Below are positions 40,509-57,600 of a DNA stretch of 57,719 nt, one piece after another. The stretch lies in IMG/VR virus record IMGVR_UViG_3300042922_000732, positions 1-57,719 of that record; one strand, 5' to 3'. Position numbers and translations under genes: made by a program. The notes under the pieces were generated by a model. It worked only from the letters and a program-made list of their open reading frames with translations. It did not search any database and was not told where the DNA came from. How positions within the stretch are numbered: the first letter of the stretch is position 1; each line of letters begins with the position of its first letter. This stretch comes from a virus. Its lineage: Duplodnaviria; Caudoviricetes.

Positions 40509-41240
40509 TCATTTAACTTCACTTTCTAATTTCTGAAATAACTCTTTTTTATATTTATAATATGTGTTTCTTGCTAGTCCTGCCAGCTTCATAGTTTCAA
40601 CATCATTCAATGATCCCTGAAAATCTTTACTATATTTTAATATTTGTTCTTTCGCTTCAATACTTTTTTTTGTAGTTAATTTAATTCCTTTTTTCTGTCC
40701 AATCTGTCTTCCATTTAATCTAGCTGTTTCTATTCCTTCTTTTGTTCTCTGATGTAGATCCGCTACTTCTTTTTCTGATTGTATGAAAGCTAGTTTTATT
40801 TGTTCTTTTGCCAGAGCTAACAAATACTTATTTATACCATCTAATATAAAATCAACATTAGTACCTGTCATTTCAACATTATTTGTAAGTGCCTTTTTAT
40901 AGGTGCTTGTGTTTATGTGCTGTTCTCTTAAGAATATCAATTCTATACCTTTATTAAATAATTCCTCATATAGCTTATATCCTTCTTCAGCATTTCTGCT
41001 CATACGTGATACAGAGTCAAATACTATTGTATCGCCTTCTGAAATCTTACTTAACAATTTATTAAACTCTTTTCTACCTTCTATTTTAGTTCCAGTAAAT
41101 GCTTCATCAATTATTATTACATTAGGATATTCTGCTAATATATTTCTATGTTGTCGCTCTATTGATTGTTTATTAGTTGATATTCTGCAATAACCATATA
41201 TTTTATTCATTGCTCTCACCCCGTATATTTGTAATATCAT
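40509..41240 (-). CDS. Second small serine recombinase (resolvase family)
   Basis: YGYCRISTNKQ, DSVSRMSR; TTTTGATACT repeats upstream. Confidence 0.9.
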   Translation of the reverse strand: MILQIYGVRAMNKIYGYCRISTNKQSIERQHRNILAEYPNVIIIDEAFTGTKIEGRKEFNKLLSKISEGDTIVFDSVSRMSRNAEEGYKLYEELFNKGIELIFLREQHINTSTYKKALTNNVEMTGTNVDFILDGINKYLLALAKEQIKLAFIQSEKEVADLHQRTKEGIETARLNGRQIGQKKGIKLTTKKSIEAKEQILKYSKDFQGSLNDVETMKLAGLARNTYYKYKKELFQKLESEVK

Positions 41241-41436: not shown

Positions 41437-42039
41437 CTAATCTCGAACATTAAAATAGGCAACAATAGTAGCAAATGTTTGTGATATAGCATTCGCTATA
41501 AGCACCATACCAAGTATGCAAAATGTTTTTATAATATTCTGCGGAAAACTTACAGCTATATTAAAAATAGGAATTTCCATACTCCATTCTGGTATAATTC
41601 CAACTATATATGATAAAACATAGCAAAATATTGCTGCAGATATAAGAATGCCAATGTCACCAATAAATCTAAGTATTATTTCTTTTTTATTAATATTACT
41701 ATTTGTTACATTATTATTAAATGGAATTGCGAAAATAGCTATTCCCATAGCTCCAATTACTATTACAATATTTAATGCAAATTGTGATATTTCTTTTAAA
41801 TCTTTAGCCTCAAAATTTACTTTCCATCCAAATATCCCAATAAGAAGTGCTGATAAAAGAGATATACTTACAACTATTTTTTTACTTACCTTGAATGGAG
41901 TAAATACTAACCCAGGCACACTATTATATTTAGTATCATTATCATTTTGAAGTACTTTTTTATTACTAGAATTGTTCATTTTTTTAGGTATTTGTTTTTT
42001 ACTATTACGACTCATAACTATACTTGCCTCCATTATCAA
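41437..42039 (-). CDS. Multi-pass membrane hypothetical protein
   Basis: About four hydrophobic segments. Confidence 0.7.
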   Translation of the reverse strand: MIMEASIVMSRNSKKQIPKKMNNSSNKKVLQNDNDTKYNSVPGLVFTPFKVSKKIVVSISLLSALLIGIFGWKVNFEAKDLKEISQFALNIVIVIGAMGIAIFAIPFNNNVTNSNINKKEIILRFIGDIGILISAAIFCYVLSYIVGIIPEWSMEIPIFNIAVSFPQNIIKTFCILGMVLIANAISQTFATIVAYFNVRD

Positions 42040-42427
42040 ATAATTATTATAAGTCCATTATATCATGTTTACTAAATGTTATATTTTTATGCTTTACTTC
42101 ACACCTACTTTCCTATATCAAAATATATCTTAATTTTTTATATAACGAAGTCCAAGTAAACCCTGTTATTCCAATACATAATGAAAATAACAATTGAGTT
42201 GTACCTGGGTTATTTTTTATATAATCCAATTTCTTTGCAAGATTTGATAATGATCCTTCATGGTCCATTTTCACTACTTCAATTTTTTCTGATTTATGAG
42301 TGTATATAAACTCACTTACTGAAAGAGTAAGTCATTTCCAATTTTCTTTTTCTACAATATATGCATTAATTTTTTTCACCTTTTAAACTCGTCTATAGAA
42401 AAGTGAGTTTTTAATGGTAAAAAAATA

Positions 42428-43054
42428 TTAAAAAATGTAGTCATTCATAGTTTTAGCTGAATCTTCTCCAATATCATCATCCACTCCAATATAAGCTAAT
42501 GTCGTTTCTCTTTTAGCATGTCCAAATAATCTTTGAACAAAATTTATATCTTTTTCATGTTTGATATATTGTCTATATCCATATGATTTTCTAGGTGTAT
42601 GGGTACCGATAGTCTCAGATTCTTTACATATCCCTAACTCAACAGCTACATTTTTATATATCTTTCCTAATCGATCACGTCTTACATGCTGTTTCAATCC
42701 TCCTCTTCCACTAGATCTTGGAGCAGGATAAATATAGGCCGCATCACTTTTTCCATAGACATAATCTTTTAACACATTTAGTAACTTACTTGGAATAATC
42801 TCTTCACGTTCAAACTTCTTCTTTCTTGAATGTTCTGTTTTTTCTTCTAGTATACTTATTCTTCCTGTTTCTATGGATTTTTTTATATCAGAAACGGTTA
42901 ACTTTACTAAGTCTCCACCTCTAAATCCAGTTCCTATAGCTATTGTCCATAGTATATAAGCTGGATAATCAACTTCTTTTAACCTTAATGCAATTCTTTT
43001 TAAGTCTTCAGGTTTTTTTATTGTCATTGATGTATTTTTGCCCTTCTTCTTCAC
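42428..43054 (-). CDS. Short tyrosine recombinase (catalytic domain only)
   Basis: TGFRGGDL, EEKT, HTPRKSYG, LFGH, TLAYIG. Confidence 0.88.
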   Translation of the reverse strand: MKKKGKNTSMTIKKPEDLKRIALRLKEVDYPAYILWTIAIGTGFRGGDLVKLTVSDIKKSIETGRISILEEKTEHSRKKKFEREEIIPSKLLNVLKDYVYGKSDAAYIYPAPRSSGRGGLKQHVRRDRLGKIYKNVAVELGICKESETIGTHTPRKSYGYRQYIKHEKDINFVQRLFGHAKRETTLAYIGVDDDIGEDSAKTMNDYIF

Positions 43055-43284
43055 CCTGAACGCACCTGCCTAAGTGCACCATGTTTCCTCTTATATGCAG
43101 CATGATCCATGCACTTTCTAAAATCATCTGCTTCACCTATAGGCGTTACATTTTTGCAACCACAATGAGAGCATGAAATAAAACCACCATTCCTTAGTGT
43201 ATCTTGTACCTCTTCTGTTACTAAAATAGTCTCTTTCTTGCATTTTGACCTTTCACATAAAAAAGTTGTATAAATTGATTCCAT
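43051..43284 (-). CDS. Zinc-finger hypothetical protein
   Basis: CERSKC…CSHC. Confidence 0.7.
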   Translation of the reverse strand: MESIYTTFLCERSKCKKETILVTEEVQDTLRNGGFISCSHCGCKNVTPIGEADDFRKCMDHAAYKRKHGALRQVRSG

Positions 43285-43321
43285 GCTCTCACCATCCTTT
43301 CAATAAAAAATGAGCTACCTA

Positions 43322-43771
43322 TTAATTTAGTAGCTCATTACTTGTATCTTTATATTTTTTTGTAACTCTTTTTTCATACAATTCTTTACTATCAATATTT
43401 TTTAATCTTTTAGGGACATCCCAAGTCAAAGTTTCTTCGGGAGCATATACAACTATATCTCCATTTTCTTTCGTTCTATAAATGCTTGGGTTTATCTTTA
43501 TAAATGTTCCATCAGACATACACCTTGTAGCTTCATAATTTATAGCCTTTTCAGCTTCTTTCTTTTGAAGTCTAACCTTTTTATGCTGTAACTTACTTTG
43601 ACTAAAATTTCTTTGTATACACTTTTCAACTGACTTAACATTAAGTTTCATTTTTTTTGCTATTTCGTTAGCATTAAGTCCTTCTTCAAGATATAATCTC
43701 TTAACTAGTTCCTTATCTACTATTACCTTCAAAACCAGTCCCTCCTCTAAAAAAGCGTATAATTCACCCAA
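43322..43771 (-). CDS. HTH DNA-binding protein
   Basis: VKRLYLEEGLNANEIAKKMKLNVKSVEKCIQR. Confidence 0.75.
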   Translation of the reverse strand: MGELYAFLEEGLVLKVIVDKELVKRLYLEEGLNANEIAKKMKLNVKSVEKCIQRNFSQSKLQHKKVRLQKKEAEKAINYEATRCMSDGTFIKINPSIYRTKENGDIVVYAPEETLTWDVPKRLKNIDSKELYEKRVTKKYKDTSNELLN

Positions 43772-43852
43772 ACCAAAAAAGGAGACATCATTAACTTTTC
43801 ACAATTTATTGTTTAAATATATTATATTTTATAAGTCTCTTTTTGCCTAGAT

Positions 43853-43901
43853 GACATTTTTGCGACATAAAAGCGACATTAACGTGACATTAGTGCGACA
43901 T
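43853..43901. repeat. Five GACAT motifs phased at exactly 11 bp
   Basis: GACAT at 43853, 43864, 43875, 43886, 43897. Confidence 0.85.
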
Positions 43902-44103
43902 TTTTCAAAGTCTTTTCTAGCCTCTGAACTTGTCTCCTACTTATTCCTATAATCATTGCCGAATCCACTTGTGTGTATCCTTTGACAAATCTTAGATATT
44001 TTACTTTATCTTTTGTTCTTTTAAGTTTATTTATATATGCCTTATCCTTCTCTTGATCTGAGATAGATATGTCTATCTCCCTTTTGATTGTCTCTCTACT
44101 CAT
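43879..44103 (-). CDS. Sigma-70 region-4-like HTH protein (possible late activator)
   Basis: YLRFVKGYTQVDSAMIIGISRRQVQRLE. Confidence 0.78.
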   Translation of the reverse strand: MSRETIKREIDISISDQEKDKAYINKLKRTKDKVKYLRFVKGYTQVDSAMIIGISRRQVQRLEKTLKNVALMSR

Positions 44104-44270
44104 AATCTCCTCCTATTTCTCTAAAAGTTAACTATTCTTTAACATCTATTTCTATTCCTCTTGTTACAGAAAGACTTATAATTGGACTCTTTACACATTT
44201 TCAATTCAAATTTCATTTTATCCCCCCAGAAATTCTCCAAATATAAGTATTACGCAGTATTTATATATAA

Positions 44271-44311
44271 AAAATACCGCAAATTCATTTTTGTGAATAA
44301 TGCGGTATTTT
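44271..44311 (-). terminator. Moron terminator A (homologous to 46012-46050)
   Basis: AAAATACCGCA…TGCGGTATTTT. Confidence 0.8.
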
Positions 44312-44347
44312 CCCAATATTTTTAATTAATCTATAAAAGCACTGTTT

Positions 44348-45124
44348 TTAATTTGTTTTATTTAGTAAAATGCTTTGCTCTAATTCGGCACTTGCTTGTA
44401 CATATAAATTCTTATATTCTATGTCAGGAATACTAAATATATATCCATTCCCTGTATCAATAACCTTAATAAAGAAAAACATAGTCTTAATGTTTGTTAT
44501 TACTCTGTTTCTACTCTCTCCAGATTCAATCGATTCTTTTGTTTTTGGGGATGAATTAAGAAATGAAGAAGACATCTCATTAAACATATCTTTAATAACT
44601 TCATCGATTTCCGAGTAAGATATATGTGTATCAAGTCTACCATTAAGAACAAATATAAGAACTTTTCTTGGTCCATTTGCTAATGTTGTAATTGATAATA
44701 AAGCTATTTTTTTTTCCTGTAGCTTACTCCTAGTAATATATTGCTCGTATATTTTAGTATCTTCATCCAATTTTTTTTTCAATATTTTATAGCTGTTTTC
44801 CAGTTGATTTATCTTTCTACTATCAACTGCATTTATAATTCCTAAAGCAGCCCAAACAGCAACTGCAATAGCAATTATAGCTAAAACAATAGTTGTATAT
44901 GTTGTAAATGTAGACTTTTCTTTCTCAATTTCGGTAATTGTACCAGTTTTTAATGATTGCATTTGCTTATTTACTTCTGTTTCAATTTGCTTATTTATAT
45001 CTTCCACTGACAATTGGCTATTATTCTCCAATTTGTTATCTGATGTCGCATACGTATAATTACAAAAACACAACAATAAAATTATAGTCATAAATAAACA
45101 TTTATATAAATTCCTTATTTTCAT
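44348..45124 (-). CDS. Membrane protein moron (signal peptide, TM, coiled coil)
   Basis: Hydrophobic N-terminus and internal TM; own TGnTATAAT promoter near 45163-45171. Confidence 0.72.
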   Translation of the reverse strand: MKIRNLYKCLFMTIILLLCFCNYTYATSDNKLENNSQLSVEDINKQIETEVNKQMQSLKTGTITEIEKEKSTFTTYTTIVLAIIAIAVAVWAALGIINAVDSRKINQLENSYKILKKKLDEDTKIYEQYITRSKLQEKKIALLSITTLANGPRKVLIFVLNGRLDTHISYSEIDEVIKDMFNEMSSSFLNSSPKTKESIESGESRNRVITNIKTMFFFIKVIDTGNGYIFSIPDIEYKNLYVQASAELEQSILLNKTN

Positions 45125-45199
45125 TAGTTCACCACCAATTATAGTTTCTATATATATTGAAAATTATACCACATATTATTTAGATATACATCATTTTAC

Positions 45200-45231
45200 T
45201 ACCGCATTATTCAATTTTCAAAGATCAATTT
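45200..45231 (-). promoter_or_regulatory. boxA-like plus anti-terminator element, copy 1
   Basis: 32 bp identical to 46627-46658; mRNA reads GAUCUUUGAAAAUUGAAUAAUGCGGUA. Confidence 0.65.
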
Positions 45232-45295
45232 AAATTTATTACATATCCTCTAAAATTTTATTTTCTGCTGTTTCACACCATAACGGAATGACGCA

Positions 45296-45604
45296 CTAAA
45301 TCTGTTCCCATTTGATCTCTTTAAGTTCACCATATTTTTCTGTATATCTATCCATTAGAACTTCATTTATTTGTCCATCTGTGTAATGACTAGGAAAATC
45401 ATCTGTTTCCTCAATTTCTTCATTATTGGCTTTTATTATAGTAACCTCAATTAATATATACTCCTCTTGTTTAGATGCATCTGGACCTTCTCCATACATT
45501 TCCCAGCACGCTTTACTATTTGGAATCATAAACACACATCTATCTCCCGTCACACTACATTTATAACCTTCATCCATATCCCATTTTGAACATTTACAAC
45601 TCAT
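45296..45604 (-). CDS. Cys-rich hypothetical protein
   Basis: CKC…CSVTGDRC…C…GEGPDA. Confidence 0.7.
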   Translation of the reverse strand: MSCKCSKWDMDEGYKCSVTGDRCVFMIPNSKACWEMYGEGPDASKQEEYILIEVTIIKANNEEIEETDDFPSHYTDGQINEVLMDRYTEKYGELKEIKWEQI

Positions 45605-45978
45605 TTTTCTTCCCCACTTTCTATTTGCAATATGTCTGCAACATCTTTTAATGTTATTCCTTTTTCAAACCTATCAATTTGCATAAATTCTTCAAAAATA
45701 TCCTCTGCATATTCTTTTAAGATTTCCTCTTTTTTCTCTTCTGGAATATCTTTACTCTGCTCTTCGATTTCTTTTCTACATAGGTAATACGGTAATAGAA
45801 ATTTTATTAATTCTGATCTATTTTCAATTAATGCCCTGGCACAATTTATCAAAGGCTTTGCAATATCTTTATTATTGTTGTTTACATATTCATTATCCAT
45901 AGCTTCAAAATCATTTCGGATATTTATATCAACAATAAGTAACCCATCAATATTAATTTTCTTTCCTTCTTCACTCAT
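45601..45978 (-). CDS. Hypothetical protein
   Basis: GAGGT RBS; coupled to the next gene. Confidence 0.7.
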   Translation of the reverse strand: MSEEGKKINIDGLLIVDINIRNDFEAMDNEYVNNNNKDIAKPLINCARALIENRSELIKFLLPYYLCRKEIEEQSKDIPEEKKEEILKEYAEDIFEEFMQIDRFEKGITLKDVADILQIESGEEK

Positions 45979-46011
45979 TGTTCTACCTCGCTTTCTTACT
46001 AAAATTGCGTA

Positions 46012-46050
46012 AAAAAATACCGCAAATTCTTTCTGAATAATGCGGTATTT
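46012..46050 (-). terminator. Moron terminator B
   Basis: AAATACCGCA…TGCGGTATTT. Confidence 0.8.
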
Positions 46051-46056
46051 AAACTC

Positions 46057-46533
46057 TTATAGTGCTTTAATATTTTTAGTAGTTTCTTGCGATTTTTTTA
46101 GCGATTCATTAATTAAACTAATACTATCATTGTCAAATTCATTTTTGAGAGCAAAAAATTTTTCAGAATACTCTAGAAATTTTTCCTCTTCCAGCGTGTT
46201 TGTACATTTTCTATAAAATAGTATTTCTCTCGATAAGCCTGTTAATTTTATACAGTATTTTGATATATTAGAACATAATTCAGTGCTACCTTTCAAATTG
46301 TAGAAGATCGTAACTGCTGAAGCTAATGTGCTTAAAACAAAAGCAATAGAAGTTGATATCTCTCCCAATTTTAGACCTAACAAAATAGTTGTGAGAGTTG
46401 TGAATATTATTTGAATACGTCTTATACGCTGATTTCGCTTTTGCATTTTACTTACAAATGGAGCATTGTTTTCAACAGTAGTAACAATAGTATCTAACAA
46501 ATAATCAAATTTTTCTTCAATTTTAACAGACAT
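46057..46533 (-). CDS. SLATT/DUF4231-like two-TM protein (moron)
   Basis: Basic stretch, two TM helices, helical C-terminus; own TGCTATAAT promoter near 46567-46575. Confidence 0.62.
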   Translation of the reverse strand: MSVKIEEKFDYLLDTIVTTVENNAPFVSKMQKRNQRIRRIQIIFTTLTTILLGLKLGEISTSIAFVLSTLASAVTIFYNLKGSTELCSNISKYCIKLTGLSREILFYRKCTNTLEEEKFLEYSEKFFALKNEFDNDSISLINESLKKSQETTKNIKAL

Positions 46534-46626
46534 AATTCTTTCCCCCTAATCATAAATCTAGTAAAAATTATAGCATGTATTCTATGACTTTTCACTAAAT
46601 TTAGTAGTTAGTGAGCCTTGTTCCAT

Positions 46627-46658
46627 TACCGCATTATTCAATTTTCAAAGATCAATTT
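46627..46658 (-). promoter_or_regulatory. boxA-like plus anti-terminator element, copy 2
   Basis: Identical to 45200-45231. Confidence 0.65.
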
Positions 46659-46691
46659 TTTATTTTTAATTTACTACACAATATCTACATC

Positions 46692-47051
46692 TTACGAATT
46701 TATTATTTTAAAATTTTTCCTTTGTTTGTTAGCGTATAAATCAATATAATATTTGCTCATCTTAAACTCGCTACATTCAAATTTCACAATGTTTTTACTT
46801 AATGTTTCATCATCCATTCCATAAAAATAACATTCATCACAGTTCCAACATGGTTCATCTAATGTTCTTGCTTCTTCTATTGTTGTATTAGATACATGCA
46901 ATTCACAATTTTTCATGCATTTACTACACTTACATACACTATCGCATATTGTTGCATCCCATTGCATTTCTAATTTATCTACTGGCTTTCCTTCATTTTC
47001 AAAAAAACTTAGTTGATTGACTTCTTTACTATATTCATTTTCATAGTCCAT
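46692..47051 (-). CDS. Cys-rich hypothetical protein
   Basis: CDSVCKCSKCMKNC…CWNCDEC. Confidence 0.7.
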   Translation of the reverse strand: MDYENEYSKEVNQLSFFENEGKPVDKLEMQWDATICDSVCKCSKCMKNCELHVSNTTIEEARTLDEPCWNCDECYFYGMDDETLSKNIVKFECSEFKMSKYYIDLYANKQRKNFKIINS

Positions 47052-47077
47052 TTAACCAACTTCCTCTACTTGTATTC

Positions 47078-48082
47078 TTAAACTACTAACTTTCTATATT
47101 CATGTTTAAGATTTTCCTGACTTAATCGAGCATAATTTTGATGTGTAGTGGTTGGTGTAGTATGTCCTAATATTTCTTGAACTCCTACAATTGACATTCC
47201 ACTATTTAATAATGTAGTTGCCTGAGTCCTTCTAAACTTATGAGCATGGACTCTTTCAGTTACATCTGTTCTTTTCCTTATTCTAGTTAACATTAACTGT
47301 AATGCTCTTACTTTGATATGATTGTGTGGAGCTTTCTCAGATAAAAATAAATATTCTGATATACCTTCTCTAGTTTCAATATACTTTTTCATATGAATCT
47401 TTGCTTTAGTTGAGAAGAAAACAACTCTCTGCTTACTACCCTTGCCAGTTACAATAATGCTTTTTTCATTCCAGTTTATATCATCTAGTTTTATATTCTT
47501 TAATTCACTAATTCTACAGGCTGTACTTGTAAGTAATTCAAAGAAAGTTTTTTCACGTTCTGTATTACATGCATCTCTTAAACTTTCAAGACTTTCTTGT
47601 TTATAGCATTTTTGAATTATTTTAGGAACTTTAGTTTGTTTTAATTTACTTGCTGGATTAGCAAATATATACTCCTCATTTTGTAGCCATCCAAAAAAAC
47701 CTTTTAGGCATGTTATATATCCATTTATTGTTGATGGCTGCTTATTTGTACTCATAAGTTGTAAAAACATTCTCAAATCCATTGTTGTTATAGTTGAAAC
47801 TGGCTTTGTAAAAAATAGATCTAATTTGTTAAGAAATAATCTGTAATTGGTTAAAGTCTTTTCACTTAGTCCTTCTAATCTCTTACATGCAATAAATATT
47901 TGTGCTTTCACTTCAATATCACTTGCAACTAGATCCTTACATTTTGTATTAATTTCATAATCATATAAAGTTTCATCTATTTTATTCTTCACTTCTAATT
48001 GAAAAGATAAATCCTGTTCCAATACCGGCATTAATAAAGTTAATTTTCCTAGTAGTCTTATGCTCAATTCATCATTTAACAT
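47078..48082 (-). CDS. Tyrosine recombinase (XerD-like, with SAM-like N-domain)
   Basis: TACRISE, GKGSKQR, HAHKFRRT, LGH, NYA. Confidence 0.92.
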   Translation of the reverse strand: MLNDELSIRLLGKLTLLMPVLEQDLSFQLEVKNKIDETLYDYEINTKCKDLVASDIEVKAQIFIACKRLEGLSEKTLTNYRLFLNKLDLFFTKPVSTITTMDLRMFLQLMSTNKQPSTINGYITCLKGFFGWLQNEEYIFANPASKLKQTKVPKIIQKCYKQESLESLRDACNTEREKTFFELLTSTACRISELKNIKLDDINWNEKSIIVTGKGSKQRVVFFSTKAKIHMKKYIETREGISEYLFLSEKAPHNHIKVRALQLMLTRIRKRTDVTERVHAHKFRRTQATTLLNSGMSIVGVQEILGHTTPTTTHQNYARLSQENLKHEYRKLVV

Positions 48083-48115
48083 TCCCTAATTCTCCTATAC
48101 ATTTTTTGTAAGATT

Positions 48116-48340
48116 TTAAAGTCTACTATCATCAAATAAAAATTTTTCTCTTTTTAGCGCTTCTCCACTATTACTTTCAATATCACATTCTCTAACTTCA
48201 TATAGACTTCTATATTTTTTATATGTTATTGCTGTAGTTTCCTTTATTTTAAATGTATCAACTAAGCCTTTTAATATTTTCTCCCTTGGAGCATCCTTAT
48301 TTTTATTCAAGAAATCACGTATCTTTTTAGGTATAGCCAC
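48116..48340 (-). CDS. Hypothetical protein
   Basis: GTG start with RBS; in operon. Confidence 0.6.
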   Translation of the reverse strand: MAIPKKIRDFLNKNKDAPREKILKGLVDTFKIKETTAITYKKYRSLYEVRECDIESNSGEALKREKFLFDDSRL

Positions 48341-48356
48341 ATCTCTTCCCTCTTTT

Positions 48357-48599
48357 CTAATTTACAATTTGGGTAATATACCACATATCAAATATTTCAT
48401 CTGGCAATATGTATGTACACTTTTGCCAATTTGTTATTGTTGAATTATAAAACTTCAAATTCTTCTCTTTTGAAAATTTTTCTATTATATAACTATCACC
48501 ACTGCTTTTGCTTGTAATAATTACATTCCCATCTAGACCACTTACCCAGGCTTCAATAAACGTATATTCTTTTGACTTATCGATTTTATTAATATCCAT
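48357..48599 (-). CDS. Hypothetical protein
   Basis: AGGTGG RBS; in operon. Confidence 0.65.
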   Translation of the reverse strand: MDINKIDKSKEYTFIEAWVSGLDGNVIITSKSSGDSYIIEKFSKEKNLKFYNSTITNWQKCTYILPDEIFDMWYITQIVN

Positions 48600-48712
48600 A
48601 TTTCCACCTTTCTTATATTTTTATAAAGAGAGCTTTACGCCCTCTTATTTTTCTGCAGTAACTTTAACATTAACTTGTAACCCCTAATGCTCCGTATAGT
48701 CCTGCAGGTTAA

Positions 48713-49756
48713 TTATGTTTGTGTATTTAACCAATTTACACATGTTTGATGTTTATTATCGTTTCTACATATAAGTGCAAGATCACATATGCCTGTACAT
48801 CCATTTCCACCATTACACCTACTACATATGAAATTGGCTAATTCTTCTATATTCATTTCTTTTATTCTGTCAATTACTTTCTTAGCCATATATTCTGGTA
48901 CTATCTGCTGTACTACTTCACCAGATTTTATATCCACAACATCATTTCCAATAATGGTCAAATTAATATTTTTAACTTCTGTTTCGCTTTCCGAAACGGG
49001 CACTGTTTCTTTTATGGTTTCTTTTACTATAGTTGTTATATCCTTTGGCTTTACTTCTTCTCCAATAACTATCTTATTTACTATTTCTTTCTGTTTATCT
49101 TGCGGTAATTTACTTGTTTCATATGCTGCTGTAATTCCCAAATTACCTTTTTTAAATTCTTCCTTCGCTTCTTCTGTAAGATTATTATTAATGCTCTCCA
49201 TCCTTGCTACTTGTGTAGATGAAGTACTTAATATGTCTGCTATTATTTCTCTAACTCTACCAGGCAATTTTTCCTTTTTCTTATATTCAAGTAAAAGAGT
49301 TTTTAACTTTTCGGCTTGCTTAGTTTTCTCCCAATCTGTAAGCTGTCTAGCTGTCGAATTTGTTATTAATAATAATAGTTTATCTTTAATTGAATCCTCT
49401 TCATTCTCTACCTTACATGGAGCATATTTAAATTGTGTTTTACCTTCTTCAAACAATTTTTTTAAAGCTAAATACCTTCTATGTCCTGCTATAATTTCAT
49501 ATTTTGTGTCCGAATCGGACACATTTTTATTATCTACTTTCTTAACAACCAAGTTTTGTTGAACACCAAATATCTCAATTGAATCCTTAAGCTCTTTAAG
49601 TTCATCTTCATCTATTGAATAAAAGTTTTCTTCTTCCCATGGAATTAAATCATTAATATCTATTGGAATAGTCTTGAATTTTGTAACTTTTTCTCTATTA
49701 ACTTCATTATTTTCTGAACTACTGCCAATTAGTTCAAACATATTAAACTTACCCAT
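48713..49756 (-). CDS. parB: ParB/Spo0J-family protein
   Basis: LKDSIEIFGVQQNLVV, IIAGHRRYLA, HTH. Confidence 0.9.
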   Translation of the reverse strand: MGKFNMFELIGSSSENNEVNREKVTKFKTIPIDINDLIPWEEENFYSIDEDELKELKDSIEIFGVQQNLVVKKVDNKNVSDSDTKYEIIAGHRRYLALKKLFEEGKTQFKYAPCKVENEEDSIKDKLLLLITNSTARQLTDWEKTKQAEKLKTLLLEYKKKEKLPGRVREIIADILSTSSTQVARMESINNNLTEEAKEEFKKGNLGITAAYETSKLPQDKQKEIVNKIVIGEEVKPKDITTIVKETIKETVPVSESETEVKNINLTIIGNDVVDIKSGEVVQQIVPEYMAKKVIDRIKEMNIEELANFICSRCNGGNGCTGICDLALICRNDNKHQTCVNWLNTQT

Positions 49757-49783
49757 TCTCTTTTCCTCACATAATCAATTCTT

Positions 49784-50548
49784 TTAAGAATTTAAAAATT
49801 CTTCAACTAAATCCATATAATCTTTAGCTGCATTACATCTTTTTGAACATTCTAAAATTGGCTTATTCTCAAAAGAACTTTCATCAATCTTTACTGTTCT
49901 CCTAATATGTGTCTTAAACATTGGATAACCTGTATTATTATTTAAATAATCCTCTCCCTGAATGTTCACTTGATTTTTAGCAAATTGAGTAATAAAACAG
50001 CCTTTTAACTTAAGATCTGGATTCATTTCTTTGGCATAATCTATTTGCTCTATTAATTCCTTCATCCCATCAAACGTAAATTGATCTATCTTTAATGGTA
50101 TTAATATTTCATTACTTGCTACCATCGCATTTATAACTGAAACATTAATATCTGGTGGATTATCTATCACAGCATAATCATAATTATCTTTTACATTGTC
50201 TAAAGCTTTTCTAAGTATATATTGTTGTGGTCTGCTAGAATCCATAATTACGCTAAGATTTGCTTTAGCTAGTCCCATATTTGCAGGAATTACATCTAAA
50301 TTTTTATATCTTGTCTCAGCAATAACATCTTCTATATCAATATTTCTATTAATCATAATATCTGCAATGCTTAATTCATCTTCATTATGCAATCCAAATA
50401 ATTTAGTTGTATTTCCTTGTTTATCATTATCTATAAGTAGCACTTTTTTGCCATATACTGTGGACAAAATGTGAGCAATGTTAATACTACTCATTGTTTT
50501 TGCAACTCCACCCTTAAGATTAATAATACTTATAACTTTCATACTCAT
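49784..50548 (-). CDS. parA: ParA/Soj ATPase
   Basis: KGGVAKT, IDNDKQGN, IDNPP. Confidence 0.93.
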   Translation of the reverse strand: MSMKVISIINLKGGVAKTMSSINIAHILSTVYGKKVLLIDNDKQGNTTKLFGLHNEDELSIADIMINRNIDIEDVIAETRYKNLDVIPANMGLAKANLSVIMDSSRPQQYILRKALDNVKDNYDYAVIDNPPDINVSVINAMVASNEILIPLKIDQFTFDGMKELIEQIDYAKEMNPDLKLKGCFITQFAKNQVNIQGEDYLNNNTGYPMFKTHIRRTVKIDESSFENKPILECSKRCNAAKDYMDLVEEFLNS

Positions 50549-50724
50549 AATTTCAAACCTCTTCTCTCATTATTTTTTACTTACAATGTAAAATTCTTCT
50601 CTTTATTCTGTTTATATTGTCCATACTGTTCATAAAAGCTTGTTTCTTACCTTCATTCTCCAATTGTCTCTTTTTAGCTATGTCTCTAATCGTTCTTTGT
50701 GCTAATTCATGTGGTGTCATTTTT

Positions 50725-51159
50725 CTACATTCCATCAAACACACCTTCTTTAACAATTGTTTTAGACTTTTCTAAATACTTAGTTAATTTTTCTGATGCT
50801 TCTTGCCATCCATAGCAAACCTCAACATAATACCCTTGTTCAATTAAATCCTTGATCCATTTTTTCTGCTTATTAGTGGGTTTATTATCTCCAACTTTCA
50901 TTTCTATATAAGCACCATGATAACCACCCCTAGGTACTGGCAATGCTAAATCCGGTACTCCTGCTTTAACTCCTTGTCTCTTAAGTGAAACAGCTTCTTT
51001 TTTATCACGCCTTCCACCGTTTGGCACATGATATAACAAATCTAATTCTGGAAACTCTTGAGCAGCCCACATTGCCCACTGAAATAAACATATCTGTTCT
51101 TGAGATTCTTTTGCTGAAAACATATAATTCCTCCTATTCTCTTTTGACTTCATTTGCAA
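50725..51159 (-). CDS. VRR-NUC nuclease
   Basis: HVPNGG…GVKAGVPDL…IEMK. Confidence 0.9.
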   Translation of the reverse strand: MQMKSKENRRNYMFSAKESQEQICLFQWAMWAAQEFPELDLLYHVPNGGRRDKKEAVSLKRQGVKAGVPDLALPVPRGGYHGAYIEMKVGDNKPTNKQKKWIKDLIEQGYYVEVCYGWQEASEKLTKYLEKSKTIVKEGVFDGM

Positions 51160-51886
51160 TTTTTATCATTGTATATTTTAAATATCCATAACCAGTAAAT
51201 TTATTTACACCTTTAAATATGGAATTTTTATCTATGTAATAGCCTTTCTTTGCTTTTGGAACTGATTTATACCATTCTCTTGTGCTAATAATTATTTTAT
51301 TTGGTTCAGGTATTAATAGATTTTTGCTGCAGTTCCATCTCTTACTTTGCAGTTCTTTGCTTTTACATGTTTGTTTTATTAAATAAGATGCTAATTCTGC
51401 ATACTGTCCGGTCTCATCTAAAGGGAAAACTTTAACTCTTCCCTTCGTCCAACATTTTTGAAGTATCTTGGTGTCTATATGATTTATAACCAGATGATGA
51501 TGCCTGGCACCTTTACTCCCAACTTCCATTACATGTATATACTTTAATTCCTTGCCTTGTTTTTTATATTCTTTTCTAAGTTCTCTAAGAGCTTTATCTA
51601 TATCTTCTCTCATTTGCTCTTTTGTATCTGGTCTTTCATCTTTTCTATAATCAAATACTGTATGAAAATCTCCTTCTCCATAATTTGCATTTATTCTCTG
51701 TCTTAATTTTTTCTCTGCTAATTTTAAATTTATCTCTTGTTGATCTTCTGTAGTTTTATTTACAACTTCTCCTCTTTTTACCCCTTTAGCTTTATATCTA
51801 AGGGTATAGTATTTTTCCACCTCTACTGTTTTACCAGCATTAGTTATACTCATAATGTATGGCATATCTATAACCTCACTTGTCAT
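51134..51886 (-). CDS. HUH-type (rolling-circle-like) replication protein
   Basis: YIHVME…HHHLVI (HUH) and LASYLIK (catalytic Tyr), RWNCSKNL. Confidence 0.75.
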   Translation of the reverse strand: MTSEVIDMPYIMSITNAGKTVEVEKYYTLRYKAKGVKRGEVVNKTTEDQQEINLKLAEKKLRQRINANYGEGDFHTVFDYRKDERPDTKEQMREDIDKALRELRKEYKKQGKELKYIHVMEVGSKGARHHHLVINHIDTKILQKCWTKGRVKVFPLDETGQYAELASYLIKQTCKSKELQSKRWNCSKNLLIPEPNKIIISTREWYKSVPKAKKGYYIDKNSIFKGVNKFTGYGYLKYTMIKIANEVKRE

Positions 51887-51963: not shown

Positions 51964-52066
51964 TTGATTTTTCGCCATACATTTGGTATAATATTTTTAA
52001 AGATTTTTTAAGCAAATGTATAGCTTAGGTGAGTATGATTAGGCAAAATCATACTCACTCTTTTTT
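51964..52066 (+). ncRNA. Candidate counter-transcribed RNA upstream of rep
   Basis: TTGATT-17-TATAAT (51964-51992); 12-bp stem GTGAGTATGATT/AATCATACTCAC plus T-run. Confidence 0.55.
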
Positions 52067-55402: not shown

Positions 55403-55792
55403 ATGGTTAATATAATGGAAATTAGTACATTAGGTATGAATATTAAGACTTTAAGAGAGAAAAAGGGATGGAGCGTAAACAAATTAAAAGAAATTAGTTC
55501 TGTTGGATATGCAACTCTACATGACATAGAAAGTGGCAAAAGTCAAACAATGAATTCTAAAAGCCTAGAAAAAGTTGCTAGAGCACTTAATACTACAAGT
55601 GATGATCTATTAAATATAGAATCTATAGAGTTTGTAGTTGAAGATATCGCAGAAACTATAGATGCTATTTTTGAATCAGAGGAATTAAAATTAGATGGAA
55701 TAAATTTAAGTGAATACGAAACTGAATTTTTGAAAGACTTCTTCGCCGCAGGAGTAGAGAAAATAAGAAAGAAAAGAGTTGAACAAAAATAA
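55403..55792 (+). CDS. CI-like XRE repressor without an S24 peptidase domain
   Basis: IKTLREKKGWSVNKL…YATLHDIESG; TAATG-coupled to the integrase. Confidence 0.87.
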   Translation: MVNIMEISTLGMNIKTLREKKGWSVNKLKEISSVGYATLHDIESGKSQTMNSKSLEKVARALNTTSDDLLNIESIEFVVEDIAETIDAIFESEELKLDGINLSEYETEFLKDFFAAGVEKIRKKRVEQK

Positions 55793-57600
55793 TGAACAAA
55801 AGAATTGCGATATATAGTAGAAAATCAAAGTTTACTGGAAAAGGCGATTCGATAGAAAACCAAATTGAAATGTGTAAGGATTACATAGAAAAAAATATAG
55901 GCACAAATACTGAAATAACTGTATATGAGGATGAAGGTTTTAGTGGCGGAAATCTTGATAGACCTAAGTTTAAAAAATTAATGTCTGATATTAAAAATAA
56001 AAAAAACGATATCTTAATATGTTATAGATTAGATCGTATTTCTAGAAATGTTGCAGATTTCTCTTCAACATTAGAATTGCTACAAGCTAATAATTGTGAT
56101 TTTATATCAATAAAAGAACAATTTGACACTAGTACGCCTATGGGAAGAGCAATGATATATATTGCTAGTGTATTTGCTCAATTAGAGCGTGAGACAATAG
56201 CAGAGCGCGTTAAAGATAATATGCTTGAAATGGCAAAAAACGGTCGATGGACTGGCGGAAAAATCCCACTCGGTTTTCATTCTGAAAAAATAAAAGTAAT
56301 CGACGAACAAGGATTAACAAGAGAAACTCCACAATTAATTGTTAATGATGAAGAAATACAATTTGTTAAGTTTCTATATGAAAAATATCTAGAATTAGGA
56401 AGTTTGCATAAATTAGAGGTATATATAACTCAAAATCAAATTAAATCTAGAAATGGCATTCTATATGAAAAATCTTCACTTAAAATAATTTTGCAGAACC
56501 CTATATACGTAAAGGCTAATGAGAATGTTGTAGAATATCTAAAAAATAATAATTGGTCCATTTACGGTGTTGCTGATAATATACATTCTTTATTGACTTA
56601 CAATAAGACAGAACAAACCAAGAAAAATGGAAAGTATACTAAACAAAATAAGCCTCTAGACGAAAGATTCGCAGCTGTAAGCAACATAAAAGGTTTTATT
56701 GATCCACAATTATGGTTAAATGTTCAATATCAGTTTGATAAAAACAGAGATAAATTCCCACGCCTAGGGAAAACACATAATGCTCTTTTGGTTGGAAAGC
56801 TAAAGTGTGGAAAATGTAAAGAATATATGTTAATTCAACACGGCAAAGTATCTGCTGTTACTGGGAAAAAATTATTTTATTATACATGTTCACTTAAAAG
56901 AAAATCTCACAGATCATTATGCAATAATGATAACGCTAAAGCTGATAAAATTGAAAATCTAGTTTTATTATCTCTAAAAAGTTTAGCCTATAAACAAGAT
57001 GAATATTTAAATAATATAAAAAAAGGTTACAAAGAAATGACAAGCCAAAAAGGAATTAAAATAGAATTTCTTTCTCTTAAGCAATCATTAAACGAGAAAA
57101 AAAATCAAATTGATAATTTAGTAAATAAACTTTCCTTTGCTCCCGAAATATCAGATATATTATTAGAAAAAATAAAAACCTTAAAATCAGAATGTATTGA
57201 TATAGAAAGCAAAATACATTCATTAAAATCTAATGAAGACAAAGCAAAATTAGAGTTATTAAATATAGAAATTATTAAACAATTATTAGATAAATGCGCA
57301 AATATAGAACATCTTACTAGAGACGAGCAAAAAGAAATTATTGACACTTTAATTGATGTTGTTTATTGGTATGGCAATGGAGATGATGAAGGCATAAAAA
57401 TTAAATTCATAGGCACAAATGAGGAAGATAGCACTATTGAATATACTGAAGCTGAACTGCAATCGATGTTGCAGTTCAGTTCACCTAGCATGGCCCGTAT
57501 CGAGAAGAATGATATTTTCCGCAAATTCTTTCAAGGCATATTGCTGGCAAACCTTTGTATTAAGCTTGTCATAATTTATATCTTCCTTTGGGACCTTTAA
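55792..57600 (+). CDS. Large serine recombinase (integrase), prophage form; last 35 aa come from the antisense strand of the host gene
   Basis: YSRKS, DEGFSG, YRLDRISR, recombinase domain, CGKC…C…C zinc ribbon, coiled coil; ORF crosses the att core at codon 567. Confidence 0.95.
   Translation: MNKRIAIYSRKSKFTGKGDSIENQIEMCKDYIEKNIGTNTEITVYEDEGFSGGNLDRPKFKKLMSDIKNKKNDILICYRLDRISRNVADFSSTLELLQANNCDFISIKEQFDTSTPMGRAMIYIASVFAQLERETIAERVKDNMLEMAKNGRWTGGKIPLGFHSEKIKVIDEQGLTRETPQLIVNDEEIQFVKFLYEKYLELGSLHKLEVYITQNQIKSRNGILYEKSSLKIILQNPIYVKANENVVEYLKNNNWSIYGVADNIHSLLTYNKTEQTKKNGKYTKQNKPLDERFAAVSNIKGFIDPQLWLNVQYQFDKNRDKFPRLGKTHNALLVGKLKCGKCKEYMLIQHGKVSAVTGKKLFYYTCSLKRKSHRSLCNNDNAKADKIENLVLLSLKSLAYKQDEYLNNIKKGYKEMTSQKGIKIEFLSLKQSLNEKKNQIDNLVNKLSFAPEISDILLEKIKTLKSECIDIESKIHSLKSNEDKAKLELLNIEIIKQLLDKCANIEHLTRDEQKEIIDTLIDVVYWYGNGDDEGIKIKFIGTNEEDSTIEYTEAELQSMLQFSSPSMARIEKNDIFRKFFQGILLANLCIKLVIIYIFLWDL
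57466..57492. other. Right attachment junction (phage arm plus core), located inside the integrase ORF
   Basis: ATGTTGCAGTT…TTCAC…TAGCATG; mirrors the left arm. Confidence 0.9.

Follow-up and report, generated by a model that had tools for sequence, protein, structure and literature searches.

Two cassettes in the window

The window analysed here is the whole 57.7-kb IMG/VR virus record IMGVR_UViG_3300042922_000732, which is rated complete. Nearly all its genes form a single long string on the - strand, including every gene of the region described here, in which two accessory genes (morons) are each preceded by the same short element, here called E, and followed by a hairpin, here called T. 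From the replication end the gene order is replication initiator, ParA, ParB, a tyrosine recombinase and the cassette region; beyond it are a 74-aa (amino acid) helix-turn-helix (HTH)/sigma region-4-like gene, an HNH-like gene, a second tyrosine-recombinase-like gene and a serine invertase, and then the terminase and portal genes. The coordinates are in Table 1.

The two 32-nt E sequences show 100% identity, and 100 shuffles of the sequence gave no match of this kind. Exactly four copies of the 14-mer TACCGCATTATTCA are present in the window, in + orientation in the two elements and in - orientation in the two hairpins, and none of 100 shuffles reaches four copies. The mRNA strand of each E reads AAATTGATCTTTGAAAAT followed by TGAATAATGCGGTA, and that of each T reads AAATACCGCATTATTCA-loop-GAATTTGCGGTATTTTTT. 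T1 and T2 are predicted by RNAfold to form hairpins of -14.8 and -19.1 kcal/mol, respectively, with 6-7 T directly after them, as in intrinsic terminators. They are not listed by a simple terminator scan because the stems bear an internal bulge. Thus an earlier sequence-only reading, which had described an identical 32-bp element ahead of two unrelated morons, an exact 14-nt complement of it in the 5′ arm of the terminator behind each gene, and an extended -10 promoter downstream of each element, is borne out at this locus, and a promoter-like site in that place is found in most cassettes elsewhere.

The two cargo proteins, of 158 and 258 aa, are unrelated and fall in separate clusters. The 158-aa protein has a weak SLATT_1-like two-transmembrane match (E-value 1.4e-4, under the Pfam cut-off) and a homologue with 60% identity inside an E-T cassette of another locus, L035. 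No Pfam or PHROGs family was found for the 258-aa protein, and its Atlas matches are all <0.9. The two E copies lie between genes, on the strand that is transcribed, at 33 and 64 nt past the upstream stop codons. E-A lies 33 nt past the stop of the 119-aa gene, and transcripts of that gene therefore enter E-A. In cassette B a second promoter candidate, TTGAAA-17-TAAAAT at 45221-45193, overlaps E-B. The window promoter scan lists no promoter-like site between T1 and the start of the 125-aa and 102-aa genes, and thus these two genes probably depend on read-through of T1. A near-identity search with window positions 43800-47100 gave no match among deposited phages, and an Rfam search of positions 42000-49000 gave nothing near a gathering score. 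Among sequencing runs, no RNA run containing the stretch was listed, and one DNA run, possibly its source, was.

Table 1. Features of the cassette region, in the direction of transcription
Feature	Position	Strand	Remarks
Upstream operon gene, 119 aa, phrog_10867	46692..47051	-	stop codon 33 nt ahead of E-A
Element E-A	46627..46658	-	boxA-like half TGATCTTTGAAAAT 46654-46641; putative antiterminator strand TGAATAATGCGGTA 46640-46627
Cassette A promoter-like site	46567..46595	-	GTGAAA, 17-nt spacer, TATAAT; extended -10 TGcTATAAT at 46575-46567; downstream of E-A
Cassette A cargo, 158 aa	46057..46533	-	between promoter-like site and T1
Terminator T1	46011..46050	-	predicted hairpin and U tract; 5′ arm 46047-46034, exact complement of E tail
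Two operon genes, 125 aa and 102 aa	45296..45978	-	between T1 and E-B
Element E-B	45200..45231	-	identical to E-A; boxA-like half 45227-45214, tail 45213-45200
Cassette B extended -10, TGgTATAAT	45163..45171	-	downstream of E-B
Cassette B cargo, 258 aa	44348..45124	-	family none found
Terminator T2	44269..44310	-	5′ arm 44307-44294, exact complement of E tail
First gene past cassette B, 74 aa, HTH/sigma region-4-like, phrog_38492	43879..44103	-	then HNH-like gene, further on terminase

A family of E-T cassettes

A 22-mer of E was found in 20 other IMG/VR contigs, in which both flanks are unrelated. A 17-mer consisting of the 5′ half, a boxA motif described below, and the start of the tail was found in at least 118 IMG/VR stretches, and a degenerate 25-mer in at least 120 stretches of bacterial genomes. 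Among the matches listed, the genome carriers are almost all Clostridium species, with Hathewaya and Terrisporobacter in addition. At a typical locus a T-family terminator is present on the same strand, 250-5019 nt downstream of E. Cassettes are single or arrayed, with up to about five per array; the architectures among the 120 genome loci listed include ET (44), E alone (21) and ETET (8), the longest being ETETETETE. Within arrays, the following E usually begins 80-117 nt past a T.

Unique cassettes were assembled from viral records with the window (56), from bacterial genomes with one genome per species (117), and from loci found by a T-seeded search, which gives a total of 199. The sequence-only reading had proposed a search for the element pair around diverse genes as a check on a portable chassis, and the E-to-T unit is indeed found around approximately 146 unrelated cargo families, in addition to a second location in a related phage (see below). 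The pairing between element and terminator that it had noticed in two cassettes is kept, and covaries, over the 199.

An rRNA-type boxA in the 5′ half of E

Reference boxA sequences were taken from the rRNA-operon flanks, with 16S genes located, of two Clostridium genomes (L256 and L257) that were reached through cassette loci. The leader boxA is TGGTCTTTGAAAATTGAAC (or GATCCTTGAAAATTAAAC) and is found ~114 nt ahead of the 16S gene; the boxA of the 16S-23S spacer is TGTTCTTTGAAAATTGCAC. The window motif, TGATCTTTGAAAATTGAAT, agrees with both TGGTCTTTGAAAATTGAAC and TGTTCTTTGAAAATTGCAC. More generally the E 5′ half is TG(T/A)TCTTTGAAAATTGAA, also given as TG(T/A)TCTTTGAAAATTGAAT, and matches the leader and spacer boxA sequences; most other E copies have TGTTCTTTGAAAAT. 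From these matches, the E 5′ half is an rRNA-type boxA of the host genus, and the resemblance to a Firmicute leader boxA seen earlier extends to real Clostridium rRNA operons. The window has nine boxA-like sites at ≤1 mismatch, against 7.8 expected, and only the two E copies are exact. A site in the rep leader (51993-52003) was inspected and not taken as a boxA.

It should be noted that E-based seeds force the presence of boxA. A search was also run from the terminator side, with no boxA requirement, and it provided 51 new loci (L262-L312), in which 42 terminators are preceded by ≥300 nt of sequence. At 29 of the 42, a strand that is complementary at 13/14 positions or more and lacks a U tract of its own lies upstream. 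Directly before this complement is the boxA-like sequence TCTTTGAAAAT, with ≤1 change, in 28 of the 29; the 29th shows two changes.

In the rRNA operons of L257 and L256, the 16S leader-trailer helix contains boxA, and the leader strand GGTCTTTGAAAATTGAACAGAA is complementary to the trailer strand TTCTGTTCAATTTTGAAGGACC. The analogy with an rRNA processing stem that the sequence-only reading had drawn thus has a counterpart in Clostridium, in which the 16S trailer is complementary to boxA and the strand beside it. In sequence, the E tail (TTGAATAG) and the T arm (CTATTCAA) resemble these leader and trailer strands, which hints that tail and arm were derived from rRNA flanks.

Two further boxA-related motifs were observed. 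At many T-to-E junctions in arrays (L144, L149, L162, L205 and others), a short hairpin, CGCAAT...ATTGCG or CGTCG...CGACG, lies between the U tract and boxA and recalls the hairpin found before the rRNA-leader boxA; it is absent at the two elements of the window. In L062, L064, L073, L112, L115 and L129, TCTTTGAAAATTGAATAATGCTTGA is followed by a G+C-rich hairpin (CCGGGG...CCCCGG) in place of the GGTA tail. These may represent a second phage boxA class, a nut-like site in other phages.

The E tail and the terminator arm covary as sense RNA

Each position of the E tail was compared with its partner in the 5′ arm of the cognate T, and Watson-Crick and G-U cells were counted as paired. In the 56 cassettes of the viral set with the window, 766/784 cells pair (Watson-Crick 711, G-U 55; A-C 10, other 8), and in the 117 of the genome set 1590/1638 (Watson-Crick 1477, G-U 113; A-C 30, other 18). 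For all 199 cassettes, including those from T-seeded loci, the value is 2703/2786 (Watson-Crick 2511, G-U 192; A-C 49, other 34). When the arm is slid by 1-3 nt only 759-1458 of the 2786 cells pair. Shuffling of cognate partners reached the observed pairing in 0/2000 trials, in the viral and the genome set alike, on a baseline that is itself ~95% paired even in the shuffles because the seeds and regexes pre-select near-consensus copies.

Among 99 distinct E/T combinations, G-U cells outnumber A-C cells by 126 to 47, the asymmetry expected of pairing in the sense RNA. At positions 7, 9 and 14, A-U and G-C pairs both occur and A-C is very rare, and Fisher p values for the three are 5e-6, 2e-4 and 1e-4, which overstate independence because the copies are related by descent; the test is not significant at positions 10 and 11.

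Important here is a confounding constraint: the 3′ arm of the terminator resembles the E tail and also constrains the T 5′ arm. Arm position 8 allows the two to be separated. It is unpaired within the predicted terminator hairpin in 91 of the 199 cassettes, and in 89 of these 91 it is able to pair with E position 7 (A-U 54, G-C 24, G-U 11). Since position 8 is unpaired there, its covariation with E position 7 is not due to the terminator hairpin. Judged from this covariation and the G-U bias, pairing between E and T is under selection on the sense RNA.

Predicted stability of the duplex and of the hairpin

The predicted E:T duplex has a median of -22 kcal/mol, compared with -11.7 for the T hairpin without its U tract, and is the stronger of the two in 161/172 cassettes, as would be expected of a terminator/antiterminator switch. 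The duplex exceeds the hairpin because the terminators are consistently bulged where E is not. The best duplex of E with any stretch of its own cassette has a median of only -9.8. In the window, the duplexes are predicted at -21.2 and -20.9 kcal/mol, against the hairpin values of -14.8 and -19.1. In a minimum-free-energy fold of the 644 nt of cassette A the T arm is paired with E; such equilibrium folds cannot decide a kinetic competition between duplex and hairpin.

Orientation, promoters and neighboring genes

Cargo genes are in sense orientation in 167/172 unique cassettes, and 110/172 have a single open reading frame (ORF) of ≥40 aa. A promoter-like TATAAT or TGnTAnAAT sequence is located between E and the first ORF in 133/169 cassettes, and in 59 of the 101 that display an extended -10, the -10 starts 13-14 nt past E. 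As the -10 lies past it, E is upstream of the transcription start of the cassette.

Flanking genes are mostly co-directional (upstream 120/137, downstream 102/139), in agreement with the operon context assumed in the sequence-only reading. Upstream neighbors are often genes of the replication module, i.e., resolvases, DNA methyltransferases, primase and SSB. The downstream neighbors are mostly transcriptional regulators/activators (of 95, phrog_36 accounts for 12 and phrog_248 for 6) and RusA-like resolvases. Judged from these neighbor types, the usual cassette site is in the early gene string, just ahead of regulator and late genes; the window is an example. At such a site, a terminator would shield a lysogen from spill-over of the constitutive cassette promoter; the same terminator would stop lytic transcription unless it were bypassed.

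Cargo diversity and movement of cassettes

The 169 cargo proteins examined form 146 clusters. Pfam assigns GNAT acetyltransferases to 9 of the 146, and AraC-type regulators and PIN domains are also found, together with single cases of an ANT(6)-type adenylyltransferase, a beta-lactamase-family protein, Abi_alpha, a KAP NTPase and others; PADLOC matches are few. By these assignments, the cargo is a mix of accessory, defence-like and resistance-like genes in Clostridium prophages.

One gain or loss of a whole cassette and one difference in cassette placement were observed. Near-identical phages, L011 compared with L008 and L013, differ by an indel of one whole cassette (L011:600-2330; L008:2590-2640). 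Identity ends just past the T 5′ arm and returns in the 3′ arm of the next T; breakpoints inside T are as expected from recombination between tandem T copies. Cassette A of the window (46664-46011) shows 76% identity from E to T with L035:5648-6296, where it is found on the opposite side of the tyrosine recombinase gene relative to its position in the window. Promoter-like sites of predicted activity, the terminator, the whole-cassette indel and the different placement in L035 are all features of morons. Homologues of the recombinases of the window are present in 9 and 22 of 251 loci, which are short, and those of its other flanking genes are rare in other cassette loci.

A possible role in transcription termination

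The arrangement described above suggests a long-range RNA antiterminator, tethered by boxA, that would allow passage of operon transcripts and termination of cassette transcripts, and on the sequence comparisons we lean, by a modest degree, toward this explanation. Each cassette would consist of E, with its rRNA-type boxA and a 14-17-nt strand, an own promoter, one cargo gene, and a T complementary to the E strand. Transcripts begun upstream in the phage operon would carry E; host NusB/S10 would bind boxA and keep it, together with the strand joined to it, at the polymerase's RNA exit, with the cargo RNA looped out, as has been proposed for boxA and boxC in rRNA operons. Once the T 5′ arm emerges, the tethered strand would capture it ahead of synthesis of the 3′ arm, so that the weaker terminator hairpin could not form and the polymerase would proceed into the next phage genes. 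Transcripts from the cassette promoter, which lack E, would end at T. A lysogen would thus express the add-on gene with no spill into the downstream regulator and late genes. Nus binding, tethering and the read-through outcome are what we infer from the anatomy of the cassettes.

Several results weigh against this role. The high shuffle baseline and the shared descent of the copies, both mentioned above, are among them. The minimum-free-energy fold of full-length cassette B retains the terminator hairpin, and G-T wobbles are tolerated in folded single-stranded DNA too. In arrays, T pairs with the next downstream E almost as well as with its own upstream E (519/546 and 522/546 cells, respectively), the upstream E being better in 17 comparisons, tied in 11 and worse in 11. 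Some elements are also without a detected T before the next E or the end of the sequence, 43/104 in the viral set and 65/184 in the genome set, 26 of the latter within 2.3 kb of the end. Conversely, 13 of the 42 T-family terminators at T-seeded loci have no upstream E strand, and the hairpin family is thus wider than the cassette system. No boxB-like hairpin is apparent in the 67 nt upstream of 295 unique E copies (median z -0.3 compared with shuffles), and upstream of the window copies the folds, of -1.7 and -5.3 kcal/mol, are without a clear hairpin. Clostridium phage HM T carries a diverged copy ahead of an annotated restriction endonuclease gene, which is followed by a sigma-factor gene, and there the E:T match is only ~8 nt. 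A phage-encoded co-factor may also be involved, besides the host factors.

Other explanations should also be considered. The E:T duplex may be a helix of the leader-trailer type that serves RNase III cleavage or RNA stability of the cassette part, with boxA aiding folding or blocking Rho. The architecture parallels the Clostridium 16S leader-trailer helix with its boxA, and covariation and G-U bias suit any RNA duplex. However, in every case the far strand is the 5′ arm of the terminator itself, and duplex and terminator are therefore mutually exclusive, the mark of an antiterminator. In addition, the duplex is only 14-17 bp and leaves out boxA, whereas E. coli, according to the portion of PMC10250234 available, requires a leader-trailer helix of >17 bp; and if there were no read-through, transcription would fail to reach the phage genes downstream. 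We consider a processing or stability helix unlikely. Still less probable is that boxA alone acts in processive, Nus-dependent antitermination and that the tail is a functionless relic of cassette origin, a copied terminator 3′ arm. The tail does resemble the T 3′ arm, and boxA-based complexes are known antitermination devices (PMC10250234, in part). Yet E complements the T 5′ arm better than T's own 3′ arm does in 161/172 cassettes, and it covaries with an arm position that the 3′ arm leaves unpaired. A relic would decay. Moreover, for E. coli, the available parts of PMC5725501 and PMC10250234 report that the Nus factors counter Rho-dependent termination when N is absent, with intrinsic terminators mentioned for the N complex alone.

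At the DNA level, the inverted 14-mers may be recognition or crossover sites of a recombinase, or attC-like folded single-stranded DNA, used in insertion, excision or inversion of cassettes. In the window the region lies between two tyrosine recombinase genes, the cargo diversity is like that of integrons, a gain or loss of a cassette has its breakpoints within T, a cassette lies elsewhere in a relative, and folded DNA would accommodate the wobbles. Breakpoints in direct repeats are also expected from ordinary homologous recombination, however, and the limited occurrence of the window recombinases (9 and 22 of 251 loci) points away from such sites, if weakly, as the loci are short. No inverted cassettes were seen, in keeping with the sense orientation of 167/172, and the GTTRRRY core is absent from E and T. 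Recognition sites would also leave unexplained the strand-specific bias for G-U over A-C, the fusion of an invariant boxA to the strand, and the fixed promoter position. We regard this role, too, as very unlikely. Finally, E may be a protein-binding site linked to the promoter, an operator or activator site over the -35 region that is repeated in inverted form in the terminator. The 13-14-nt spacing in 59 of the 101 extended -10 cases would place the tail over the -35 region. But the spacing varies: it is 31-64 nt in 40 other cases and unequal in the two window cassettes. The G-U-type asymmetry and compensatory pairs would not be expected of such a site, the boxA identity would have no explanation, and we give it hardly any weight.

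Comparison with known systems

The closest parallel to the proposed antiterminator is found in rRNA operons. In the E. coli model, as described in the portions of PMC10250234 and PMC8632103 available, boxA stays NusB-bound on the polymerase, the 16S RNA loops out, and the strand past boxA is delivered to the emerging trailer. A 2026 preprint describes the 5′ and 3′ halves as stably bridged and raises the possibility that looping of RNA is a general phenomenon (bioRxiv 10.64898/2026.03.17.712431, in part). The cassettes have a boxA nearly identical to that of Clostridium rRNA operons, and the strand beside it pairs with a strand just behind the cargo, 0.25-5 kb away; a boxA that is anchored while the next strand is brought to the trailer is also what the looping model holds, as far as it is set out in the accessible parts of PMC10250234 and bioRxiv 10.64898/2026.03.17.712431. 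Unlike the rRNA operons, the cargo is a protein gene with its own promoter, and the strand behind it forms one half of an intrinsic terminator. The cassette helix, of 14-17 bp, excludes boxA, there is no boxB-like hairpin, and the site lies behind a mid-operon gene and not behind a promoter.

In lambda with its nut sites and N protein, and in the classical morons of lambdoid phages (promoter-gene-terminator), transcripts that pass an upstream boxA site read through terminators and those started downstream stop, as proposed here. Lambda loads one processive complex per operon. The cassette system has no boxB and no known N homologue, and each site would serve one cassette, being matched in sequence to the terminator of that cassette. 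As in attenuators (leader RNAs, riboswitches, T-box), two exclusive pairings are available to the T 5′ arm, and the alternative is predicted to be the more stable. Unlike attenuators, the putative antiterminator is a whole gene away (250-5019 nt) and not within a leader, and the cassettes use no ligand or sensor, such that the start of the transcript would decide.

In T4-type phages, the PeSL cassettes have conserved intergenic promoter-plus-stem-loop motifs that flank diverse non-essential genes (Arbiol et al. 2010, PMC2839356), and the motifs are described there, in the parts available, as insulators at which modules are also shuffled by recombination. The junctions of T with the next E and promoter, and the indel within T, are comparable. 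However, PeSLs as depicted in those parts have no boxA and nothing upstream that is complementary to the terminator behind the gene; they are found in lytic coliphages and show no sequence relation to E or T. Tn916 canT (PMC11658703) and pLS20 conAn (PMC8191782) are, from the portions accessible, also cases of mobile elements that are insulated by terminators, which are passed by means of an upstream cis-acting RNA. These are single larger RNAs, processive on any terminator, as far as those portions describe them, and unlike the cassettes, in which a short strand matched to its own terminator is joined to a host boxA. Integron cassettes (attC) likewise form arrays of single genes with very diverse cargo and are bounded by conserved imperfect inverted repeats. 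In contrast, each E-T cassette has its own promoter, a host RNA signal and a terminator are part of the repeats, no IntI-type gene is found in a constant position, and there is no GTTRRRY core (no GTT in E or T).

Thus none of the known relatives compared joins a host boxA to a terminator-matched strand across a whole gene. The parts are known; the use of Nus-mediated looping to control termination would be new. In the literature outside subscription journals and supplements, searched with the motifs as text included, no description of the motifs or of the arrangement was found; the sole match to a motif was a preprint on Clostridium genetics that is unrelated. It is possible, though we hold it slightly short of probable, that the rRNA leader/trailer design has been turned into a plug-in insulator that depends on host factors only, in which a boxA strand bound by NusB/S10 captures the distant T arm and the start of the transcript alone sets its fate.

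If the proposed role is correct, the cassettes would be the first example in nature of Nus-mediated RNA looping that controls termination, and would constitute a phage gene-cassette system with a cargo diversity comparable to that of integrons (~146 families in 169 cassettes examined). It would explain how strongly expressed accessory genes are found amid essential operons in temperate phages of a large genus of medical and industrial importance, with neither activation of lytic genes in the lysogen nor a block to the phage's own lytic transcription. The cassettes would also provide an independent natural test bed for the model of RNA looping by boxA, which until now has been put forward for rRNA, with termination versus read-through as a simple read-out, and a compact, sequence-programmable insulator for synthetic Firmicute operons. 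In practice, the E and T motifs can be used to locate accessory-gene cassettes in prophages of Clostridium.

Other features of the window

Window genes at 40509-41240, 42428-43054, 47078-48082, 48713-51886 and 55792-57600 comprise the replication initiator, ParA, ParB, a large serine recombinase, the serine invertase and the two tyrosine-recombinase-family genes. With its replication initiator and ParA/ParB genes, the virus looks like a phage-plasmid. The 208-aa recombinase type recurs near the late region in 22/251 loci and in phage HM T.

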